In this document: piece after piece, positions 6,112-56,808 of the stretch
Position numbering within the stretch: position 1 is the stretch's first letter
How the letters are laid out: each line of letters opens with the position of its first letter
Source: Spirochaetota bacterium
GTDB taxonomy: Bacteria > Spirochaetota > UBA4802 > UBA5550
Length of the DNA stretch: 64,000 nt
NCBI GenBank assembly: GCA_963664815.2
Contig: CAXXHB010000002.1
Span: 192,001 to 256,000, forward strand
Direction: 5' to 3'
Notes under the pieces: model-generated
The model's input: only the letters and a program-made list of their open reading frames with translations
Told to the model about the DNA's origin: nothing
The model's database searches: none
Translations under genes and position numbers: made by a program

Positions 6112-6114
6112 TAT

Positions 6115-6464
6115 TGGAGACGGCGGGACTCGAACCCGCGTCCTACAACATACCCCTATAGCGTCTACATGCTTATCTTCTTCATTTAATCTAAGTTTGC
6201 AATCCGGGAAGAAGCGCCGTATTACAAACCTGTCTCCCTAAAGCTTTGCCCTCATCACGGGAGCATTAAATCGGGCTATTCCCAGTAATTTTATGCCTTT
6301 AAACCTCCCTGAGAAACAAAATGTTTAAAGACATAGCAGGTATTAAGCTGCTAGTGCAAAATTATCGTTTGCGATTACATTTAATCTGCCATGATTTACG
6401 AGGTGACAGCACACTCGGCATGCAACTATAGAAACACTATTGCAGTCGAAACCAGATCGTCCCC
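6115..6464 (-). ncRNA. ssrA: tmRNA (transfer-messenger RNA), tag peptide (A)ANDNFALAA
   Basis: On the minus strand, 5' GGGGACG pairs with 3' CGTCTCC-A, including the G3-U alanine identity pair. The T-arm is GCGGGTTCGAGTCCCGC. The tag ORF GCA AAC GAT AAT TTT GCA CTA GCA GCT TAA lies at 6372-6343. The CCA end is not encoded. Confidence 0.97.
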
Positions 6465-48068: not shown

Positions 48069-49688
48069 ATGCGTTATAGAATTAATAATAAAAAGATAGT
48101 CTCATTAATTGCATGCGCAGTTTTTTTAGTTTTTCTTTTTTCAACTACTGAATCCTTTTCAAGGGCAGGACGGGGACAGAGCTATAGTTCAAAATCTTCA
48201 AGCTCAAAATCAAGTTCCTATTCCAGAAAAAGTTCTTCAGGAAGCAGCTCCGGTTTTTTCTCCGGCAGCTCAGGTTCAAAAAACTCTTCTTCTAAAACTG
48301 TTATACCAGTTTTTATACCATCATCGGGTGGAACCGGTACTGGGGGGAATACCGCAGCAGGATCTGCATCTCCAGATACAACATCAACCCAGACTTCGGC
48401 GGGGAAAAATGACTGGATTTTCGGTCTTGTCGGCCTTGTAATAATAATCGGGATCTTTGCCCTGATTATTTACCTGATAGTAAAACTATTTAAAAAAATA
48501 TTTGGTTCCGGCGGTTCCGGAATAAAATTTGATGATACAAAGCCTACCGCTTTTGAGTTTGATCCTTCCCTGCTGCAACAGTTAAAAGGTACCGATCCGG
48601 ACTTTTCGGCTGATCTATTTATGGACAAGGCAAAAACAATCGCCGAGCGTCTTCAGAAAGCCTGGAGCGATGGCGACATGATGCCGGTAAGAAATTATGT
48701 CTCACAGGGAGTTTTCAACCGTTTCAGGCTTCAGCTTGAACTTATGGTAGAAGAAGAAAAAGTCCGCAATATACTCTCCGATTATAAAGTACTTAAAATT
48801 TCTGTATCAGATCTCAGTAATTCAAAAAGCTACCAGACTCTCCATGTAAATATCTTTGCGTGTGCAAAAGATATAACCATTACTGCAAACGCCTCAGAAG
48901 ATGAGAAGCAGAAATCTCTCGCTGGAACAAAAAAAACTGCATTCTATGAAATATACTCATTCACACGAAAACTCGGAACAAAGACAAATACCAAAAGCGA
49001 CTGGCTTAAAGGGGAATGTCCTAACTGCGGATATGTTCCGGATAATTTCAGCGAAACAAACAAGTGTGTAAGTTGTGGATCAATATATAACTCCGGAGAA
49101 TTCGATTGGGTTCTTTCTGAAATCACACAACAGGAAGAATGGCAGCCTGGTTCAGCGGATGATATTGACGGACTCAAAGAACTTGAGGGGAAAAACCTTT
49201 CAATCAACAGGGAGGTTATTGAAGATCGAGCCTCATACCTTTTCTGGAGATGGATTTACTCACGGGTGAAAGGAACATCAGCGCCTATGTCGAGAGATGC
49301 ATCGGCAGAAATGCTTGATTCACTCGGAAATGGTAAAGAACCTTTATATAACACATCTGTAGGTTCAGTAGACCTTATTTCTGTCCGGAATGAAAATGGT
49401 AACGCATATGCAGATGTCAAAATTCAATGGAGCACTGCCCGTGTTATAAATGAAGAACCTTATCACCAGGAGCACAATTTCGTATTGAAAATGCCTCTGA
49501 CACAGAAAAACCCTTATGGTCTTGCCGATCATTCATGCGAATCATGCGGAGGACCTCTCCCTGAAAGTGATACAATAAAATGCAGCTATTGCGGTAATGA
49601 ACTTCCATCAACAGTAACTGACTGGGTACTTACAGATGCCGAAGAAATAGACTGGGAATCGGAATACCCGGAGGAGAATGAATATTAA
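48069..49688 (+). CDS. TIM44-like domain protein with zinc ribbons
   Basis: Signal peptide, RAGRGQSYS Ser-rich tract, one TM helix, DPDFS..F..KA..Q.AW, and CxxC pairs CPNCG/CVSCG and CESCG/CSYCG. Confidence 0.8.
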   Translation: MRYRINNKKIVSLIACAVFLVFLFSTTESFSRAGRGQSYSSKSSSSKSSSYSRKSSSGSSSGFFSGSSGSKNSSSKTVIPVFIPSSGGTGTGGNTAAGSASPDTTSTQTSAGKNDWIFGLVGLVIIIGIFALIIYLIVKLFKKIFGSGGSGIKFDDTKPTAFEFDPSLLQQLKGTDPDFSADLFMDKAKTIAERLQKAWSDGDMMPVRNYVSQGVFNRFRLQLELMVEEEKVRNILSDYKVLKISVSDLSNSKSYQTLHVNIFACAKDITITANASEDEKQKSLAGTKKTAFYEIYSFTRKLGTKTNTKSDWLKGECPNCGYVPDNFSETNKCVSCGSIYNSGEFDWVLSEITQQEEWQPGSADDIDGLKELEGKNLSINREVIEDRASYLFWRWIYSRVKGTSAPMSRDASAEMLDSLGNGKEPLYNTSVGSVDLISVRNENGNAYADVKIQWSTARVINEEPYHQEHNFVLKMPLTQKNPYGLADHSCESCGGPLPESDTIKCSYCGNELPSTVTDWVLTDAEEIDWESEYPEENEY

Positions 49689-49747: not shown

Positions 49748-49898
49748 ATATCTCTGATATACGTTTCTCCGTCCAGTATCTTTATTTTATCCAGTCGTAT
49801 AATTGCAATCTGAACATCAGTTACAGTGCAAAACCAATAAAATAGTTGTAAAGAAAAGGGCAAAATATATCTTTTACTTTAACAATACGGATAATCTA

Positions 49899-51755
49899 TT
49901 GAAAAAACTGAATCTCATATTAATATCAATACACATTAAAAATTCTCCACAGGCTATGCCGCTTGCTGCTGGTCTGCTTAAAGCGCAACTTGATTCAATA
50001 CCTGAAATTAATTCTAAACTTAATGTATCTTTTATGGACTTCTATACAAACACTTCGTCTGAATCTATATCCGAAAGTATATGCCATGAGATGCCCGACT
50101 TAATTGGTTTTTCAGTATACTTATGGAACAGACAGCTGACTGAAGAGGTTTGTCATCTAATAAAAAAAAGACTACCTGAAACTTTACTCTTCGCCGGAGG
50201 TGCAGAAGCCACAGCCCGTCCAGAAAATCTTCTTTTCAGTGCTCCCTTTGACTTTGTTGTTAAAGGTGAAGGAGAACTGCCTCTCACTGAAGTAATGAAA
50301 AGAATACTGAAAAATATGTTATATAATAATATACCCGGAGTCTTTATTAAAAATGAAACAAGCATTATCGCAGAAGACCAATGGCCTCTTCCGCCCCTTG
50401 ATCTTCTCCCCTCCCCTTTTATGACCGGCATTATAAATATCGAAAACTATTCAGGTATTTTATGGGAGCTCTCCCGTGGCTGTCCGTTCAAATGCAGTTT
50501 CTGTTTTGAATCACGCGGAGTTTCCGGAATAAGACAAATCTCGATGGATCGTCTTCAGAGAGAACTGGAGATATTCGAATTTAAAAAAGTAAACCAGGTA
50601 TTCGTACTCGACCCTACATTTAACCAGGATATAAAGCGCGCAAAAAAAATTCTCCGGATAATACAGAAAACAGCACCTCTGATACACTATACCTTTGAAT
50701 TAAGAACAGAATTTATCGACAATGAAATTGCCGGACTATTCGCATCACTAAACTGCAGTCTCCAGATAGGACTTCAGAGCGCCATTCCTGAAGTACTCTC
50801 TAATGTAAACAGAAACATTGATCCGGATAAATACAAAGAAAAAATTTCAATTCTTAACATGAAGGGAGCAGTTTTCGGACTCGATCTGATCTACGGCCTC
50901 CCGGGCGATACATTCGAGGGGTTTAAATATAGCCTCAATTTCGCTCTCAGCCTTCAGCCTAATCATCTTGATATCTTTCCTCTGTCAGTACTTCCGGGAA
51001 CCGTTTTATATGAAAAAGCCGATTCTTTTAATCTTAAATTTCTTCATGAATCACCATATACACTAATCTCTTCACCAGGATTTTCTGAGTCAGATATGGA
51101 TGCTGCTGATCAGTTAAAAAATTCCTGCAACATTTTTTATAATAAAGGTGGCGCTGCGGGCTGGATGTTTATGATTACTGAAACTCTTGGTTATAAACCC
51201 GTCAAACTTCTTGAAGATTTTTCTAAATATATACATCCTGGCATTACGGAAACAGGCTTAACTGAAATCTCTATAACTGAATTACAATTAACATTTATAG
51301 AGGAGCTTTTCAGAAAACATAACATTATGCATCTGTTTCCTGTTATGAAAGATATAATAAATATTCATGGCGCATTAAACCGTTCTCTCTACGCAGGCCC
51401 ATACACAGAAACAATTACCCCTTCACTTAATGACGAATCTCTTTACAAATTATCATCAGGAACAATATTTATCACTCTCAGCTATAATTTTGATGACCTT
51501 ATGGCCGTGGGGGAATTTACCCTGGAGGAATTTCTGGCTCATTATCATCCGGAAACAACATCTGTAATAATTTATAATTGCAGAGGAGTTGTTAAATCTA
51601 TAATAGTAAATAGAAACATCTACAATCTGCTTCAGAACTTTACCGGAGAACTCACATTAAATAAAATTTCAGATAAAAAATCACAAATCAGTACGGAGGA
51701 AGCACATGAATTTATAGAATATGCCATTACTGAAACAATGATTCATCTTATTTAA
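49899..51755 (+). CDS. cobalamin-binding radical SAM protein
   Basis: B12-binding region (PDLIGFSVYLWN, AGGAEAT, KGEGE) and SRGCPFKCSFC (CX3CX2C). TTG 49899 is the probable start (track ORF starts at 49803). Confidence 0.9.
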   Translation: MKKLNLILISIHIKNSPQAMPLAAGLLKAQLDSIPEINSKLNVSFMDFYTNTSSESISESICHEMPDLIGFSVYLWNRQLTEEVCHLIKKRLPETLLFAGGAEATARPENLLFSAPFDFVVKGEGELPLTEVMKRILKNMLYNNIPGVFIKNETSIIAEDQWPLPPLDLLPSPFMTGIINIENYSGILWELSRGCPFKCSFCFESRGVSGIRQISMDRLQRELEIFEFKKVNQVFVLDPTFNQDIKRAKKILRIIQKTAPLIHYTFELRTEFIDNEIAGLFASLNCSLQIGLQSAIPEVLSNVNRNIDPDKYKEKISILNMKGAVFGLDLIYGLPGDTFEGFKYSLNFALSLQPNHLDIFPLSVLPGTVLYEKADSFNLKFLHESPYTLISSPGFSESDMDAADQLKNSCNIFYNKGGAAGWMFMITETLGYKPVKLLEDFSKYIHPGITETGLTEISITELQLTFIEELFRKHNIMHLFPVMKDIINIHGALNRSLYAGPYTETITPSLNDESLYKLSSGTIFITLSYNFDDLMAVGEFTLEEFLAHYHPETTSVIIYNCRGVVKSIIVNRNIYNLLQNFTGELTLNKISDKKSQISTEEAHEFIEYAITETMIHLI

Positions 51756-51879: not shown

Positions 51880-53934
51880 ATGACAGAAGAAAAAATATCA
51901 CGCCTTAATTTTAATATTGATGCTGAGTCAAAAAATTCCTCAGCCCGGGCATGCACATTCACTACTCTGCACAATACTGTCCAAACACCTGTATTTATGC
52001 CTGTGGCGACACTGGCGGTTCTCCGTTCTCAGGACACTTCATCAGTTGAAGATCTGGGTTATCCGGTATTACTTGCCAACACTTATCATCTTCTTCTACG
52101 CCCTGGAACAGATGTTTTCAGTAAAATCGGCGGTATACATAAATTCATGAACTGGAAAAGATCCATTCTCACCGATTCCGGCGGATTTCAGGTTTTTTCA
52201 CTATCAAAGGATGTGAAAATCACAGAAGACGGTGCTGTATTTAAAAGCTACCATGACGGCCGAAAAATTCTTTTAAGCCCCGAATCAAGTATCAATACAC
52301 AAAAATTAATCAACAGTGATATTATGATGGCTATGGATCTATGCATACCTTCCACATCTGAAGAGTCCCTGTGTATGAAAGCCGTGGATATAACAGCAAG
52401 ATGGGCGGAGAGAAGCATAACGGTGCGGGGAGATTCTCTTCAATCAGTTTTCGGGATAGTACAGGGTGCATGCTTTTCTGAACTCCGCAAAAAAAGTGCA
52501 GGGCAGATAACATCTCTCCCATTTGACGGATTCGCTATCGGTGGTCTTGCCGTTGGAGAATCCGGTGATGAAAGAAAGGATATTACTGAATTCACCGCAT
52601 CACTTCTCCCCCGCAGCTTTCCGCGTTACCTTATGGGAGTTGGTACTCCTGTCGATATTCTCGAGGCTGTACACCGAGGTGTCGATATGTTTGACTGTAT
52701 ACTCCCCACTGCAATGGCACAGCAGGGAGTTGCCTACACTTCTCATGGAAGAATGGAACTGCGCCGAGGAGTCTATAAGTTTCAGGATCGGCCCCTTGAT
52801 GAAAACTGTTCCTGTCCGGCTTGTGCCAGGTACAGCCGGGCATATCTGCACCATCTTACAAAAACAGGGGAGTACTATGGCGGAAACCTCATAGGGATTC
52901 ACAATCTGACATTCTATCGCAATTTGATGATATCCATGCGCAGAGAGATAATCAATGGAACATTTGCATCTTTTTATTATGAATATAAAGAAAAACTGGC
53001 TATTGACGATGATGAATATCCTGTCTCTCCTCCGAAGACAAAGAAAAAAACTTTTCTTCCAAAACTCGGTGATTATGAAATTATAAAACATAGTACCGGT
53101 TTTCACAGCATACGCCATATAAAATCCGGGGAGGTAATGCATTCCGTTACAGATCCACTGACTGAAGCATATAACCTTTACATAAGCCAGTCAGATATAC
53201 ATCGCATGTTTAAAATTGTCCCTGATGAAAATATCGTTATCTGGGATGTGGGACTCGGCGCAGGAACAAATGCCATGGCGGCAATTTTTGAATTCGAAAA
53301 AATATACGCCGTCAATAATAACGAAAAAGGAGTCCGGATAATCAGCTTTGAAAAAAACCTTGATTCAATGCGCCTTGCTGCTAAAAATCCTGCACTTTTT
53401 CCGCACGTACGCCACTCCGCTCCGTCTGCACTGCTGAAAAACGGAATATGGAAATCGGATTTGTATAATATCGAATGGAATCTGGTTGAAGGAGATTTCC
53501 TCAATAATATCGAAATTACTCAAAGACCTCATTTAATTTTTTATGATCCTTTTTCTATAAACACTGATGGTCCTCTCTGGGATTATTCAGTATTCAGACG
53601 CATCTTTAATCGCTGTGCGGGGAACCCGGCAAAGCTGTTTACTTATTCAAGTTCCACTAAGGTCAGGAGTGCACTCCTGGCTGCAGGTTTCTATACAGGG
53701 ACAGGTGCGGGCACAGGACCGAAAACAGATACAACAGCGGCTTTTACTTCTCCCGACATAATAAATCCGGAAATACTACTCCTGGGTGATGACTGGCTTG
53801 AACGCTTTAGCCGCAGCAGTTCAAGATTCACCAGTGATATCTCTGATGACAGAAAGTCTGAAATCGAAAAACTGATAATAAACCATCCTCAGTTTAAAAA
53901 ATATTCAGTTAAGGATATTCATGGAAAAGAATGA
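51880..53934 (+). CDS. tgt: tRNA-guanine transglycosylase fused to an MnmC-type SAM methyltransferase domain
   Basis: TGT motifs TPVFMPV, LANTYHL, TDSGGFQV, FGIVQG, GGLAVGE, RYLMGVG, DMFDC, CSCPAC..HN. C-terminal GEVMHS, DVGLGAGTN, ISFEK, FYDPFS, TYSSSTKVRSALLAAGF. Confidence 0.92.
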   Translation: MTEEKISRLNFNIDAESKNSSARACTFTTLHNTVQTPVFMPVATLAVLRSQDTSSVEDLGYPVLLANTYHLLLRPGTDVFSKIGGIHKFMNWKRSILTDSGGFQVFSLSKDVKITEDGAVFKSYHDGRKILLSPESSINTQKLINSDIMMAMDLCIPSTSEESLCMKAVDITARWAERSITVRGDSLQSVFGIVQGACFSELRKKSAGQITSLPFDGFAIGGLAVGESGDERKDITEFTASLLPRSFPRYLMGVGTPVDILEAVHRGVDMFDCILPTAMAQQGVAYTSHGRMELRRGVYKFQDRPLDENCSCPACARYSRAYLHHLTKTGEYYGGNLIGIHNLTFYRNLMISMRREIINGTFASFYYEYKEKLAIDDDEYPVSPPKTKKKTFLPKLGDYEIIKHSTGFHSIRHIKSGEVMHSVTDPLTEAYNLYISQSDIHRMFKIVPDENIVIWDVGLGAGTNAMAAIFEFEKIYAVNNNEKGVRIISFEKNLDSMRLAAKNPALFPHVRHSAPSALLKNGIWKSDLYNIEWNLVEGDFLNNIEITQRPHLIFYDPFSINTDGPLWDYSVFRRIFNRCAGNPAKLFTYSSSTKVRSALLAAGFYTGTGAGTGPKTDTTAAFTSPDIINPEILLLGDDWLERFSRSSSRFTSDISDDRKSEIEKLIINHPQFKKYSVKDIHGKE

Positions 53935-54175
53935 AACATCAATGATGGACCCGACCGTCCTTATTGATCTTACAACAACTGAAATGCCTTTCGGCAAATA
54001 CAGGGGAGTAATACTCTGCAATCTCCCGGAACATTATATTGTATGGTATCATGAAAACGGATTCCCGAAAGGGAGGCTTGGTATGCTTCTTTCCACCTTA
54101 TATGAAATAAAACTTTATGGTCTGGAATATCTTTTAAATCCATTAAAAAAAACTAATTCCTATTATAATGATTAA
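53921..54175 (+). CDS. DUF3820-family small protein
   Basis: MPFGKYRG..LCNLPEHY..W...GFPKG.LG; AAGGA RBS; overlaps the tgt stop. Confidence 0.85.
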   Translation: MEKNETSMMDPTVLIDLTTTEMPFGKYRGVILCNLPEHYIVWYHENGFPKGRLGMLLSTLYEIKLYGLEYLLNPLKKTNSYYND

Positions 54176-54359: not shown

Positions 54360-56168
54360 ATGAATTCTGATTATTTATTCCGTGATGATTTATTTAATGT
54401 GCAATCGGGGCTGGCAACAGTTATTCTCGACGAAGATCTCTCTGTAATAAAATGCAATAATGAGTTTCTGAAAATAACAGGTCTCTCTGCCGGAAATGTC
54501 ATACAGAAACACTGGCACGATCTGATAATATATGATTATCCCTACTCTCCGCTTGAAAACGCAGTAGTTTTCAGCAATTTAAATGCAGTCCCTTCCGGAA
54601 AATTCTGGTGTTCAATCAAAGATAAAAATCCCAGGAAACTAATCTCAGCCACGATATCCTATAACCCGGTTCAAGGCTGTTACTACGCAACTTTTTATGA
54701 TATTTCAGAACAGATGGTTCCTGAAAGGATGCTGCAGGATGGCGGTCTTATAATTAACTCAATAGTTGATAACCTGAAAGATGCGGTCACATTTCATGAT
54801 AAATATGGAATCATAAAATTAGCATCAACTGAAGTCTGTAAAATGGCCGGGGTTGAAAAAAAAGATATTCTGGGGAAAAATATCCGTGAATTTTTTGACA
54901 GTGCTCTTGTAGATAAGTGGCTATACTGGATGAACAACAAACCGGATATGCTTCCGGCTTATCTTGAATTCGACAGTTTATTAAACAATGATAAAATATT
55001 TCATGTAATAGCATCCCCGAAACTTTTTTTTGATTTAAACAAAAAGGTTGTCGGCTGCCTCTTTATTTTCTCGGATGTCACCGAATTAAAAATCAATGAG
55101 CAGAAGCTCCGAATCTCTGATGAAAAATACTCCAAGGCATTTCATGCAAGTCCCGCCCCCAGCTCTATAACAACACTCGAGGAAGGTAGTTATGTCGATG
55201 TTAATGAAAGCTATACCAAGCTTGTAGGCTATACAAAAGAGGAACTTTTAGGAAGTACAACCTTAGACATCAAATTTTTTACCGATATGGAGGAAAGGGC
55301 AAGGTTCATAAATGAACTTATTAAAACCGGTAAACTCCGCAATTATGTAACGCATATGTATTCAAAAGTCAAAGGAATAAGAACAGTATCAATCGCTGCT
55401 GAAATTATTGAACTGCAGTCGAAAAAATGTATTATATGGGTCGGATACGACGTTACAGATCAGATTCAGCTTGAAAAAGAGGTACTCACAGCAGCAGGCC
55501 GCGAAAGATATAAAATAGGTCAGTATCTTCATGATGATCTTGGTCAGCATCTCGTTGGAATTGAGGCGATGTGCTCTCTCCTTTTAAAAAGACTGAAAAA
55601 TCAGAATAATTCCGAGGTTAAAATTGCCGAAGAAATACATGAATATCTGAAAGAGGCGCATGAAAAAGCCAGAGTCACCGCAAGAAATTTATGCCCGGTG
55701 AGACTCGAGGAGAATGGACTCAGCATTGCCATTACCGATCTTATTGCAAAAACTGAAAAAATATTCGGAATAACCTGCACCTTTTATAATTACAATCTGC
55801 ATATAAGAATTTACAACAGCCAGGTTGCGATCAATATGTACTATATAGTTCAGGAAGCTATGAATAATGCTGTTAAACATGGAAAAACAAAAAATATTAT
55901 TATATCTTATTCATCAAATAAGGATAATATATATTTATCTATAGAAGATGATGGTGAAGGTTTTGATCTGTCTCAGATCACCTCTCCGGGTATCGGTCTT
56001 GAACTGATGAAATACCGGGCCCGTGCCATCGGAGGTTCTCTTGAAATAACTACCTCACCGGGATCAGGAACAAAAGTTCTGCTGAAATTCCCGAGAATCA
56101 ATAATAATAAAAACGAATGGGACTGGAAGGAAAAAACATATGAAGAAATCACGAATATTTATAGTTGA
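54360..56168 (+). CDS. cytoplasmic multi-PAS histidine kinase (HisKA_3)
   Basis: Three PAS-like segments, ERYKIGQYLHDDLGQHL, QEAMNNAVKHG, DDGEGF, GIGL. No TM segment seen. Confidence 0.92.
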   Translation: MNSDYLFRDDLFNVQSGLATVILDEDLSVIKCNNEFLKITGLSAGNVIQKHWHDLIIYDYPYSPLENAVVFSNLNAVPSGKFWCSIKDKNPRKLISATISYNPVQGCYYATFYDISEQMVPERMLQDGGLIINSIVDNLKDAVTFHDKYGIIKLASTEVCKMAGVEKKDILGKNIREFFDSALVDKWLYWMNNKPDMLPAYLEFDSLLNNDKIFHVIASPKLFFDLNKKVVGCLFIFSDVTELKINEQKLRISDEKYSKAFHASPAPSSITTLEEGSYVDVNESYTKLVGYTKEELLGSTTLDIKFFTDMEERARFINELIKTGKLRNYVTHMYSKVKGIRTVSIAAEIIELQSKKCIIWVGYDVTDQIQLEKEVLTAAGRERYKIGQYLHDDLGQHLVGIEAMCSLLLKRLKNQNNSEVKIAEEIHEYLKEAHEKARVTARNLCPVRLEENGLSIAITDLIAKTEKIFGITCTFYNYNLHIRIYNSQVAINMYYIVQEAMNNAVKHGKTKNIIISYSSNKDNIYLSIEDDGEGFDLSQITSPGIGLELMKYRARAIGGSLEITTSPGSGTKVLLKFPRINNNKNEWDWKEKTYEEITNIYS

Positions 56169-56808
56169 TGACCATCCTATTTTCAGAAAAGGTCTTATAC
56201 AGCTTATAAACGAAGAAACAGATATGGAGGTTTGCGGCGAAGCGGAAGATGTCTTCTCGGCAACTCACAAAGTACGGCAATTAAAGCCAGATCTCGTAAT
56301 TGTAGATATTACACTAAAGGATACCAGCGGTCTGGAACTTATAAAATTTATTCAGGATAATAATCTGAATATTCCTTCACTTGTTCTTTCAATGCATGAC
56401 GAAAAAGTATATGCTGAAAGAGCCCTGGTATCAGGAGCCAAAGGTTATATAATGAAACAGGAGATGTCAGGACAGGTCACCACTGCCGTCAGGCAGATCC
56501 TTTCCGGGAAAATATATATAAGTGAAAATATGAATGACCGTCTCCTTAATACTTTCTTATCTAAAGGGGGAGAGGCAGGTAAAAAAACTTATGACGATGA
56601 TCCGGCATCCATTCTTACAGGACGGGAACTTGAGATTTTCAGACTTATCGGCAAAGGTTATACCAGAAAAGATATCTCTGAATCTTTAAATCTGAATGTA
56701 AATACAATAGGAACATACAGAGAGAGAATAAAAGAGAAGATGAGTATAACATCATCAAATGAACTTCTCTCCTGTGCAATTAAATGGGTACAAAAGACAG
56801 AAGAATAA
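56140..56808 (+). CDS. NarL/FixJ-family response regulator
   Basis: Motifs IVDDHP, VIVDI, LSMH, GYIMK; LuxR HTH LTGRELEIF. Confidence 0.94.
   Translation: MKKSRIFIVDDHPIFRKGLIQLINEETDMEVCGEAEDVFSATHKVRQLKPDLVIVDITLKDTSGLELIKFIQDNNLNIPSLVLSMHDEKVYAERALVSGAKGYIMKQEMSGQVTTAVRQILSGKIYISENMNDRLLNTFLSKGGEAGKKTYDDDPASILTGRELEIFRLIGKGYTRKDISESLNLNVNTIGTYRERIKEKMSITSSNELLSCAIKWVQKTEE

Follow-up and report, generated by a model that had tools for sequence, protein, structure and literature searches.

A TGT paralogue tethered to an MnmC2-like methyltransferase: a candidate second fate for preQ1 in bacterial RNA

Introduction

The window analysed here, a 64,000-nucleotide stretch of DNA from a Spirochaetota bacterium, encodes a conserved two-domain protein in which a paralogue of canonical TGT, here called TGT2, is joined to an MnmC2-like methyltransferase, both parts retaining their catalytic residues. 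To our knowledge, bacterial TGT chemistry in tRNA ends in queuosine alone. A TGT paralogue that is conserved, tied to an amine methyltransferase and found in many phyla alongside a complete queuosine (Q) pathway suggests a modification, at the wobble position or elsewhere, that has yet to be described. We tentatively propose that TGT2 inserts preQ1 and that the tethered domain N-methylates the aminomethyl group of preQ1, a reading that conserved residues and the analogy with MnmC2 render possible, if somewhat short of probable.

Architecture and authenticity of the fusion

The original prediction described the 684-residue ORF as a TGT, a PVSPPKTKKK linker and an MnmC-type domain, and translation, Pfam and NCBIfam confirm this layout:

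51880-53934, + strand: whole fusion ORF, 684 aa, uninterrupted, comprising TGT2, linker and MnmC2-like methyltransferase (ORF listing, translation, Pfam, NCBIfam)
51940-52995, + strand: TGT2 domain, Pfam PF01702, aa 21-372 (E 3.7e-133, 444 bits)
53020-53049, + strand: Lys-rich linker PVSPPKTKKK, aa 381-390 (low confidence in the predicted structure)
53068-53931, + strand: MnmC2-like domain, predicted to be a SAM-dependent N-methyltransferase, with a subfamily-specific C-terminal tail, aa 397-684

The two halves differ in how they score against family models. The fusion matches the NCBIfam Tgt model TIGR00430 at 437 bits, above the equivalog cut-off of 306.75. Methyltransf_30 (PF05430) is matched at aa 530-622 (E 4.7e-11, 43.1 bits) and passes its Pfam gathering cut-off of 22, whereas the NCBIfam MnmC2 domain NF033855, matched over aa 415-621, reaches 67.5 bits and falls below its equivalog-domain cut-off of 136.

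Three public runs, belonging to two studies, yielded contigs that bridge the junction between the TGT and the methyltransferase without differing letters (spanning 52786-53255, 52559-53256 and 52110-53108). Both Pfam domains are present in 116 of the 119 other homologues listed, which are 54-80% identical, and the remaining three have only PF01702 on record. An assembly artefact, which the original prediction had allowed for, is rejected on the strength of these bridging contigs and of the conservation seen among homologues; the fusion is real.

In the full-length structural model (pTM 0.60), the linker is disordered, with pLDDT below 50 at aa 386-390, and there is no fixed geometry pointing to a hand-over between the two sites, which counts against the methyl-preQ1 reading. 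Complex prediction between the TGT2 domain and the methyltransferase domain gave a score of 0.00 and a mark of 0.32, a result that weighs neither for nor against the reading.

Residues and phylogeny of TGT2

TGT2 aligns over its full length to solved Zymomonas TGT structures (E about 1e-100), and its residues were mapped via the 1ozm alignment. The motifs named in the original prediction (TDSGG, DxC, GGLAVGE, MFDC and the zinc site) were all located in the ORF:

52171-52185, + strand: TDSGG, aa 98-102; D99 corresponds to Zymomonas Asp102 and is invariant in 60 fused proteins
52333-52344, + strand: MDLC, aa 152-155; D153 and C155, both invariant in 60 fused proteins, correspond to Zymomonas Asp156 and Cys158 (preQ1-type pocket)
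52540-52560, + strand: GGLAVGE, aa 221-227 (Zymomonas 229-235), preQ1 pocket, with V225 at Val233; invariant in 60 fused proteins
52687-52698, + strand: MFDC, aa 270-273; D272 corresponds to Zymomonas Asp280 (nucleophile) and is invariant in 60 fused proteins
52702-52728, + strand: LPTAMAQQG, a clade-specific change, with A278 and Q281 where canonical TGTs have Arg (Zymomonas 286 and 289)
52807-52902, + strand: zinc site, CSCPAC at aa 310-315 (C310, C312, C315) with H341; ligands invariant in 60 fused proteins

In the Zymomonas enzyme, we take Asp102 and Asp280 to be catalytic and Asp156 to recognise the base, with Cys158 and Val233 presumably marking a preQ1-type rather than a queuine-type pocket, and Cys318, Cys320, Cys323 and His349 presumably serving as the zinc ligands. 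Met260 of the preQ1 pocket (Zymomonas numbering) is likewise kept in TGT2, as are the residues that we take to form the dimer interface. More broadly, 82 of the 95 columns conserved in canonical TGT are unchanged, including five of the eight conserved Arg, and none of the altered columns is a base-pocket residue.

A single branch separates 19 canonical TGTs from 116 methyltransferase-linked TGTs, with a support of 100 in FastTree and an SH-aLRT of 100 in IQ-TREE (mixture model, 61 rows). In the IQ-TREE tree, TGT2 branches are much shorter than those of canonical TGTs from the same genomes. By this phylogeny, TGT2 is a clade of its own, paralogous to canonical TGT.

The clade is also marked by its residues. 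Zymomonas positions 286 and 289 are Arg in all 19 canonical TGTs (the location of Arg286 in TGT is from PMC5395182), whereas among the 116 TGT2 proteins position 286 is mainly Gln (77), Ala (13), Lys (12) or Ser (10) and position 289 is mainly Gln (104); V282 is replaced by Ile. The loss of the two Arg and the change at 282 were counted against the methyl-preQ1 reading, and with the Arg286/Arg289 pair lost the modified site may differ from the classical G34. For genome annotation, these clade-specific residues could serve to separate the two types of TGT.

The methyltransferase subfamily

The methyltransferase domain is modelled with a pLDDT of 88.9, and its top nine PDB matches in Foldseek are all MnmC2 or MnmC chains, with Aquifex 3vyw matched at a TM of 0.67 (E 3e-15). 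Residue roles in motifs I-IV and VI of MnmC2 follow the accessible part of PMC3527978. The main sequence features are:

53242-53271, + strand: motif I, WDVGLGAGTN (GxGxGxN, the SAM-binding motif; G458, G460, N464)
53542-53580, + strand: motif IV, YDPFSINTDGPLW, with the catalytic D556-x-F558 kept and the P and N-P-E of the canonical DxFxPxKNPELW gone
53638-53658, + strand: motif VI, FTYSSST, in which Y589 corresponds to Aquifex Tyr225, the proposed substrate-stacking residue
53794-53895, + strand: tail WLxRFxRS ... HPQF, modelled as helices, subfamily-specific and absent from the canonical MnmC2 of the same genome

The motif II Glu (E491), the motif III Asp (D539) and the motif IV D556-P-F558 are also kept, and the catalytic residues of either domain vary little or not at all among 60 fused proteins of several phyla. 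The loop that follows motif IV and the C-terminal tail depart from canonical MnmC2 in a systematic way. The motif sequence DPFSINTDGPLW has no Pro after the Ser, unlike DxFxP, and two adenine contacts of Aquifex MnmC2 are without a match, with Asp at the position of Asn200 and a variable residue at that of Glu202. Because Asn200 and Glu202 are not conserved, SAM binding may differ from that of Aquifex MnmC2, a point against the methyl-preQ1 reading. Pfam scores of the fusion methyltransferases lie at 44-60 bits, against 82-117 bits for canonical copies from related genomes. Judged by its sequence, the methyltransferase is MnmC2-like but a distinct subfamily.

Distribution and coupling of the two parts

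Related loci were retrieved with an alignment as the query; a single methyltransferase domain used as the query retrieved none. Of the 80 best genome loci, 78 have the methyltransferase subfamily fused to TGT2; the other two are truncated at a contig edge. Among 80 metagenome loci, 33 are fused and another 20 have TGT2 as a separate gene of the locus, in most cases immediately upstream with an overlap. The remaining 27, some of them on short loci, have the methyltransferase without a TGT within 7 kb, which counts against the methyl-preQ1 reading. This pattern of linkage indicates that TGT2 and the methyltransferase are functionally coupled.

At least several hundred species carry the module, spread over Verrucomicrobiota, Bdellovibrionota, Spirochaetota, Binatota, Acidobacteriota, the former Deltaproteobacteria (assigned from the record titles Thermodesulfobacteriota, Syntrophobacter and 'Deltaproteobacteria') and other groups. 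Within the window's own order it is patchy, being found in about 13-14 of 41 genomes. Seven loci have long ORFs (858-1253 aa) in which no extra N-terminal domain was found, Pfam returning only TGT and Methyltransf_30; in this high-GC DNA the ORFs have probably been called too long.

As the original prediction suspected, the fusion was already in databases, where these proteins are currently named 'Tgt' or 'MnmC family methyltransferase', and one sentence in the accessible part of a preprint lists it. If borne out, the methyl-preQ1 idea would correct this annotation.

Canonical Q and mnm5 genes in the same genomes

The genome check proposed in the original prediction, for a second tgt, queA, queG/H and mnmE/G, turned up a canonical tgt, queA, queH, mnmE and mnmG, together with queF. 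The canonical tgt encodes 383 aa and outscores the fusion (513.6 versus 446.6 bits). A canonical, standalone MnmC2 of 272 aa is also present, scoring 107 bits compared with 47 bits for the fusion.

Other phyla show a similar arrangement for the Q genes. Among 20 fusion-bearing genomes sampled from them, all have a canonical tgt alongside the fusion, and in four the canonical tgt adjoins queA; QueA is found in 19 and QueF exceeds the cut-off in 16. On this gene content, the fusion is an extra module and not the housekeeping Tgt. The MnmC2 side is less uniform. A canonical MnmC2 is present in 38 of 41 genomes of the window's own order and in 11 of the 12 fusion carriers listed there, but in 12 of the 20 genomes from other phyla the fusion is the only PF05430 gene. 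In those 12 the fusion domain could simply be the MnmC2 of the cell, which counts against the methyl-preQ1 reading.

No dedicated extra tRNA was found among the 45 tRNAs of the window's genome, in which the Asp, Asn, His and Tyr GUN tRNAs are each single-copy.

Genomic neighbourhood

Two genes flank the fusion in the window:

49803-51755, + strand: B12-binding radical SAM gene, upstream of the fusion, not a conserved partner (Pfam, NCBIfam)
53921-54175, + strand: 84-aa DUF3820/QSregVF_b ORF, overlapping the fusion stop by 14 nt (Pfam)

Homologues of the radical SAM gene occur in two of eight related loci, adjoining the fusion in one and about 3 kb away in the other. DUF3820 homologues lie beside the fusion in two of the eight, both same-genus loci. 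Conservation of either flanking gene is confined to close relatives. No conserved partner gene emerged from 999 neighbouring ORFs in 160 loci, the most widespread family being present in just six; with no neighbour family exceeding that number, the fusion module appears to need no partner genes. The neighbours of ten methyltransferase-only loci likewise share no common theme.

Upstream of the fusion, no preQ1 or SAM riboswitch reached the gathering score in the window or in eight other loci, a result that counts against the methyl-preQ1 reading. Promoter and terminator scans gave counts close to the shuffled expectation. The sole match of the riboswitch scan was an unrelated tmRNA.

A phage, plasmid or viral origin was considered and rejected, as those collections held no matches: tblastn found no relatives of the methyltransferase domain in 50,697 phage records or 72,556 plasmid records, and a pattern scan for the domain confirmed none in a viral contig collection.

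Proposed function

The fusion may be a self-contained enzyme, modifying RNA in two steps and operating alongside the normal queuosine pathway without replacing it. In the first step, its conserved residues suggest, TGT2 would put free preQ1 in place of the guanine of a U-G-U context resembling an anticodon loop, most likely at G34 of one or more GUN tRNAs. In the second, by analogy with MnmC2, preQ1 that has just been inserted would be N-methylated on its exocyclic aminomethyl group by the tethered domain, with SAM as methyl donor, yielding 7-(methylaminomethyl)-7-deazaguanosine. Tethering would let methylation beat QueA, so that part of the substrate pool is diverted from queuosine, and cells could thus split their preQ1-tRNA pool between two fates.

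Such a product is chemically plausible, since its deoxy form, mdPreQ1, exists in phage DNA according to the accessible part of the published record. By calculation, the product nucleoside would have an [M+H]+ of about 326, against about 312 for the preQ1 nucleoside; the published values of the deoxy pair are 310.1 and 296.1. No report of methyl-preQ1 in RNA was found in the literature searched, which counts against the methyl-preQ1 reading. TGT2 and its methyltransferase may form a second, queuosine-independent 7-deazaguanine branch that writes a nucleoside new to RNA, a proposal that we regard as a real possibility and hold with some reserve.

Alternative explanations

The fusion might instead combine two independent wobble activities in one chain, with TGT2 producing ordinary preQ1-34 on GUN tRNAs, the C-terminal domain acting as an ordinary MnmC2 and the fusion serving only to co-regulate or co-localise them. 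Both domains do pass the Pfam thresholds of the TGT and MnmC2 families, neither the preQ1 pocket nor the MnmC2 catalytic motif is disrupted, the fusion is the sole source of PF05430 in 12 of the 20 carriers from other phyla, and bioRxiv 10.1101/2023.12.21.572861, in its accessible part, treats the TGT fusion as an MnmC2 fusion. We nevertheless consider this arrangement unlikely. TGT2 would be redundant with canonical tgt in the window's genome and in all 20 sampled genomes, 11 of 12 listed carriers in the window's order retain a canonical MnmC2, and the NF033855 score is about half its cut-off. Both parts form distinct clades or subfamilies with class-specific substitutions, and where they are unfused their genes remain neighbours, an arrangement uncommon among enzymes from pathways without a connection. 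Genome content, the separate TGT clade and the TGT-linked methyltransferase subfamily thus favour a new function over two ordinary activities.

That new function could also be the same or a similar chemistry, 7-deazaguanine insertion followed by N-methylation, directed at a target other than tRNA G34, such as another tRNA position, another RNA or DNA. The genome holds only the usual single-copy GUN tRNAs, the patchiness of the module within its order and the short TGT2 branches fit the lateral spread of an accessory function, and bacterial TGT is able to label DNA hairpins, as reported in the accessible part of PMC10103133. Such a target seems improbable to us, given that most canonical-conserved TGT columns and the presumed dimer interface are kept, that no methyltransferase relative appeared in phage or plasmid records by tblastn or was confirmed in viral contigs, and that no restriction-like or DpdB-like partner is conserved nearby in the 160 loci. 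A very remote prospect is that one domain is a binding module, with TGT2 merely holding the anticodon loop or an inactive methyltransferase-like domain adding RNA affinity. The unconserved SAM-adenine contacts, the Lys-rich linker and the Arg/Lys-rich tail would suit such a role, but a mere scaffold is not expected when the catalytic residues of both domains are so nearly invariant in 60 fused proteins from several phyla. Insertion of preQ1 followed by its N-methylation remains the best reading, at the tentative strength given above.

Comparison with known systems

TGT2 shares its catalytic Asp residues, preQ1 pocket and zinc site with bacterial Tgt (TIGR00430; Zymomonas mobilis and E. coli). 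It differs in forming a separate clade, in always being additional to canonical tgt, in lacking Arg286/Arg289 and in having Ile at 282. Moreover, it is not linked to queA and instead carries or adjoins a methyltransferase.

MnmC2 methylates the primary amine of 5-aminomethyl-uridine, acting on nm5(s2)U34 of the Glu, Lys and Gln tRNAs. The wobble base on which it acts thus presents a primary aminomethyl group, as does preQ1. The best PDB matches of the fusion methyltransferase, in both sequence and fold, are MnmC2/MnmD/MnmC(m) proteins (Aquifex DUF752, PDB 3VYW; the N-terminal domain of E. coli MnmC), with which it shares the class I fold, GxGxGxN in motif I, DxF as the catalytic element of motif IV and a motif VI Tyr. 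In the fusion, however, the loop DxFxPxKNPELW becomes DxFSxxT(D/S)xxLW, an extra conserved tail WLxRWxRS...HPQF is present, and the genetic link is to TGT2 and not to MnmC1, MnmE or MnmG. Fusions of MnmC2, including MnmC1-MnmC2, are treated in bioRxiv 10.1101/2023.12.21.572861, which counts a fusion to TGT (COG0343/PF01702) as one of four further kinds and, in its accessible part, lists it without study.

The phage dPreQ1 pathway, with DpdA transglycosylases and the DpdM methyltransferase, follows a parallel logic. The original prediction noted N-methyl-preQ1 in phage DNA, and the accessible part of the literature bears this out, though mdPreQ1 is there the product of DpdM, a metal-binding protein of the DUF3109 family with no relationship to MnmC2. 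The substrate of DpdA is DNA, and its TGT subfamily is a different one. The fusion methyltransferase is a PF05430 protein, and no phage or defence-island context was seen for it: tblastn gave no match in the phage and plasmid records, the pattern scan confirmed none in viral contigs, and the 160 loci share no conserved neighbours. The logic is nonetheless the one proposed for the fusion, namely insertion of a 7-deazaguanine by a transglycosylase and N-methylation of its aminomethyl group by a methyltransferase.

Architecture of the Fusion

The fusion is encoded by a single uninterrupted ORF of 684 aa (51880-53934, + strand; ORF listing and translation). Pfam places a TGT domain (PF01702, 444 bits) on residues 21-372 and Methyltransf_30 (PF05430, 43.1 bits; cut-off 22) on residues 530-622. 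According to NCBIfam, the N-terminal part is a bacterial Tgt equivalog (TIGR00430, 437 bits; cut-off 306.75), and residues 415-621 score 67.5 bits with the MnmC2 domain model NF033855, short of the 136 that the model requires. The original prediction had described such a fusion and named its motifs, all of which are found in the translation:

Fusion aa 98-102, + strand: TDSGG
Fusion aa 152-155, + strand: MDLC
Fusion aa 221-227, + strand: GGLAVGE
Fusion aa 270-273, + strand: MFDC
Fusion aa 310-315, + strand: CSCPAC, plus H341
Fusion aa 381-390, + strand: linker PVSPPKTKKK

The fusion is real, because contigs from three public runs (two studies) span the TGT/methyltransferase junction with zero differing letters, and both Pfam domains are kept in 116 of the 119 other proteins among the matches listed (54-80% identical, mostly 660-700 aa). 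In the full-length model each domain is confident (pLDDT 91.5), whereas the pTM of 0.60 and the disordered linker mean that the relative placement of the two active sites is not predicted.

An Additional Copy of Both Parts

The same genome encodes a canonical tgt of 383 aa, the housekeeping queuosine enzyme, which scores 513.6 bits with the TGT model versus 446.6 for the fusion, and a standalone MnmC2 of the canonical kind (272 aa, 107 bits versus 47 for the fusion). The fusion is an additional copy of both parts. Also encoded are queA, queH, queF, mnmG and mnmE, along with the usual single copies of the GUN tRNAs Asp, Asn, His and Tyr; the search for queG in this genome gave sub-threshold queG-like matches only. 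The prediction had called for a check of a second tgt, queA, queG/H and mnmE/G, of which canonical tgt, queA, queH, mnmG and mnmE are present, and every outcome of the genomic tests it proposed favours its interpretation.

Within the order of the window, canonical tgt (~370-430 aa) is present in 41/41 genomes and canonical MnmC2 (82-117 bits) in 38/41; 11 of the 12 listed fusion carriers have it too. A second TGT match lies within a 588-706-aa ORF in 13/41, and one further copy ends at a contig end. All 20 fusion-bearing genomes sampled from other phyla likewise have canonical tgt, which adjoins queA in four; QueA is found in 19/20 and QueF over cut-off in 16/20. Two fusion-bearing genomes carry an extra standalone PF05430 ORF of ~283-296 aa with a low score of ~48 bits (G042:C38:107521-107844 and G060:C116:4861-5073), which may be another member of the fusion's methyltransferase subfamily, present as an unfused second copy.

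TGT2: Clade and Residues

Phylogenies separate the methyltransferase-linked TGT paralogue, TGT2, from canonical tgt. In an unrooted FastTree phylogeny of 135 TGT domains (19 canonical from fusion-bearing genomes and 116 methyltransferase-linked), the canonical copies split from the rest on a single branch with a support of 100. The same branch was recovered with an SH-aLRT of 100 in an unrooted IQ-TREE mixture-model analysis of 61 rows (19/19 canonical, 15/15 split, 26 fused rows drawn at random, and the window). Long branches occur on several of the canonical rows. By these sequence trees, the TGT domain of the fusion is a separate clade. TGT2 branches are far shorter than those of canonical copies from the same genomes, a pattern consistent with lateral spread or with a more recent origin.

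TGT2 keeps Asp102, Asp156, Cys158, GGLAVGE 229-235, Met260, Asp280 and the zinc ligands (Zymomonas numbering), and the mapped catalytic, pocket and zinc residues are invariant across 60 fused proteins. Canonical TGTs conserve 95 columns at ≥85%, and TGT2 shares 82 of them unchanged. It differs consistently at Arg286 (Q/A/K/S), Arg289 (Q), Val282 (Ile) and a few other positions, including Y161S and H127Y (approximate numbering). Judged from these residues, TGT2 has a base pocket resembling the preQ1 type, and the backbone contact beside the target nucleotide is altered.

A Distinct MnmC2-Like Methyltransferase

Although MnmC2-like, the methyltransferase belongs to a subfamily of its own that is linked to TGT2. 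Among PDB sequences it matches Aquifex MnmC2 best (3vyw, E 7e-8), and the top nine structural matches of its domain model (pLDDT 88.9, pTM 0.88) are MnmC2/MnmC chains, followed by m4,4C synthase and spermidine synthases. Functional features described in the Aquifex MnmC2 paper include motif I GxGxGxN, the motif II Glu, the motif III Asp, the motif VI Tyr and the catalytic Asp of DxF, whose replacement in E. coli (D178A) abolishes activity (PMC3527978); the fusion has all of these. However, the canonical loop DxF(S/A)PxKNPELW, which reads FQDPFSPSKNPELW in the genome's own MnmC2, is FYDPFSINTDGPLW in the fusion, with loss of the Pro and of the positions of Asn200 and Glu202. The fusion's subfamily also has a conserved tail, WLxR(F/W)xRS...HPQF, which the canonical protein lacks.

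Genomic Linkage and Surroundings

A scan of species-representative genomes yielded at least 593 confirmed stretches of this subfamily; in the best 80 loci, the methyltransferase is fused to TGT2 in 78 and cut by a contig end in two. When more distant standalone forms were used to seed a metagenome scan, 80 loci were found: the methyltransferase is fused to TGT2 in 33, a TGT2 gene lies in the same locus in 20 (mostly directly upstream and overlapping, four ~5 kb away), and no TGT was found within the locus (~7 kb, some loci being short) in 27. In four high-GC metagenome contigs (L110, L115, L119, L122), the methyltransferase is separated by a few genes from an unfused TGT2-type gene of 377-389 aa, whose product has PVAT in place of PVGT close to its N-terminus, so the module exists in dispersed form too.

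The 27 loci without a nearby TGT (L102, L104, L107, L108, L114, L153, L164 and others) hold standalone HPQF-tail methyltransferases, many of which keep a canonical-like DxYSPK..N..MW loop; the neighbours, looked at in ten such loci, share no theme. As a preliminary lead, the Atlas has standalone clusters of this type, mainly in Verrucomicrobiota, Myxococcota and Spirochaetota.

The following features were identified in the window:

6112-6464, - strand: full-length tmRNA gene (Rfam RF00023, 201.6 bits)
48069-49688, + strand: 539-aa protein with a Ser-rich N-terminus, predicted membrane segment, Tim44-like domain and C-terminal zinc-ribbon motifs (ORF listing, Pfam)
49803-51755, + strand: B12-binding radical SAM gene, 650 aa, 124 nt upstream of the fusion (Pfam, NCBIfam)
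53921-54175, + strand: DUF3820/QSregVF_b ORF, 84 aa, overlapping the fusion stop codon by 14 nt (Pfam)
54360-56808, + strand: overlapping ORFs for an apparent PAS sensor histidine kinase of 602 aa and a LuxR-type response regulator of 222 aa (sequence reading only)

The radical SAM and DUF3820 genes accompany the fusion in close relatives only. The former, which NCBIfam matches best to the KedN5-type C-methyltransferase subfamily (153 bits, far below the cut-off of 700), has a homologue adjoining the fusion in L015, from another genus, and one ~3 kb off in L018, and not elsewhere; DUF3820 homologues adjoin it in two loci only, L018 and L021, both from the same genus as the window. The apparent kinase/regulator pair is also kept next to the fusion in L018. 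Across 160 loci (999 neighbouring ORFs) no conserved neighbour family emerged, the widest cluster spanning six loci. The tmRNA is the sole Rfam match at gathering score within the window, and no riboswitch was found upstream at that score there or in eight other loci. Searches for phage and plasmid relatives of the methyltransferase gave no tblastn match in phage or plasmid records, and a pattern scan of viral contigs confirmed no relative there.

Proposed Reaction and Alternatives

The most economical reading, a tentative one, is that TGT2 would exchange guanine for preQ1, as its intact pocket and catalytic residues suggest, and that the tethered domain would then N-methylate the preQ1 aminomethyl group, as MnmC2 does on that of nm5U, giving 7-(methylaminomethyl)-7-deazaguanosine. 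Tethering may explain the need for a dedicated TGT, since QueA would otherwise compete for preQ1-RNA from the canonical enzyme. The prediction of preQ1 insertion and methylation is partly supported: architecture, paralogy, coupling of the two parts and residue conservation are established, and we infer which base is inserted, which atom accepts the methyl group and, with uncertainty, which site is targeted.

That the chain joins two independent wobble activities is unlikely: it has room in the lineages of the 12 of 20 fusion-bearing genomes from other phyla in which no other PF05430 gene was found, but TGT2 would duplicate canonical tgt throughout, and the methyltransferase would duplicate canonical MnmC2 within the order of the window. 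The same chemistry on a different target, to which the lost Arg pair (286/289) and the patchy distribution point, is likewise improbable. That one domain serves as a binding module only is very unlikely, the invariant catalytic residues speaking against it. Insertion and methylation of preQ1 by one chain remains our preferred, if provisional, account.

Relation to Known Systems

Databases name these proteins 'Tgt', 'queuine tRNA-ribosyltransferase' or 'MnmC family methyltransferase'. A literature search on the TGT and MnmC2 families together returned only bioRxiv 10.1101/2023.12.21.572861, section 6 of which names a fusion with TGT as one of four further kinds of MnmC2 fusion without pursuing it there. 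The search for methyl-preQ1 turned up one paper on phage DNA and two on chemistry, and no others. The mdPreQ1 of phage DNA is the product of DpdM, a DUF3109 protein (10.1101/2023.04.13.536721), so that the proposed enzyme would represent a non-homologous solution and would most likely act on RNA.
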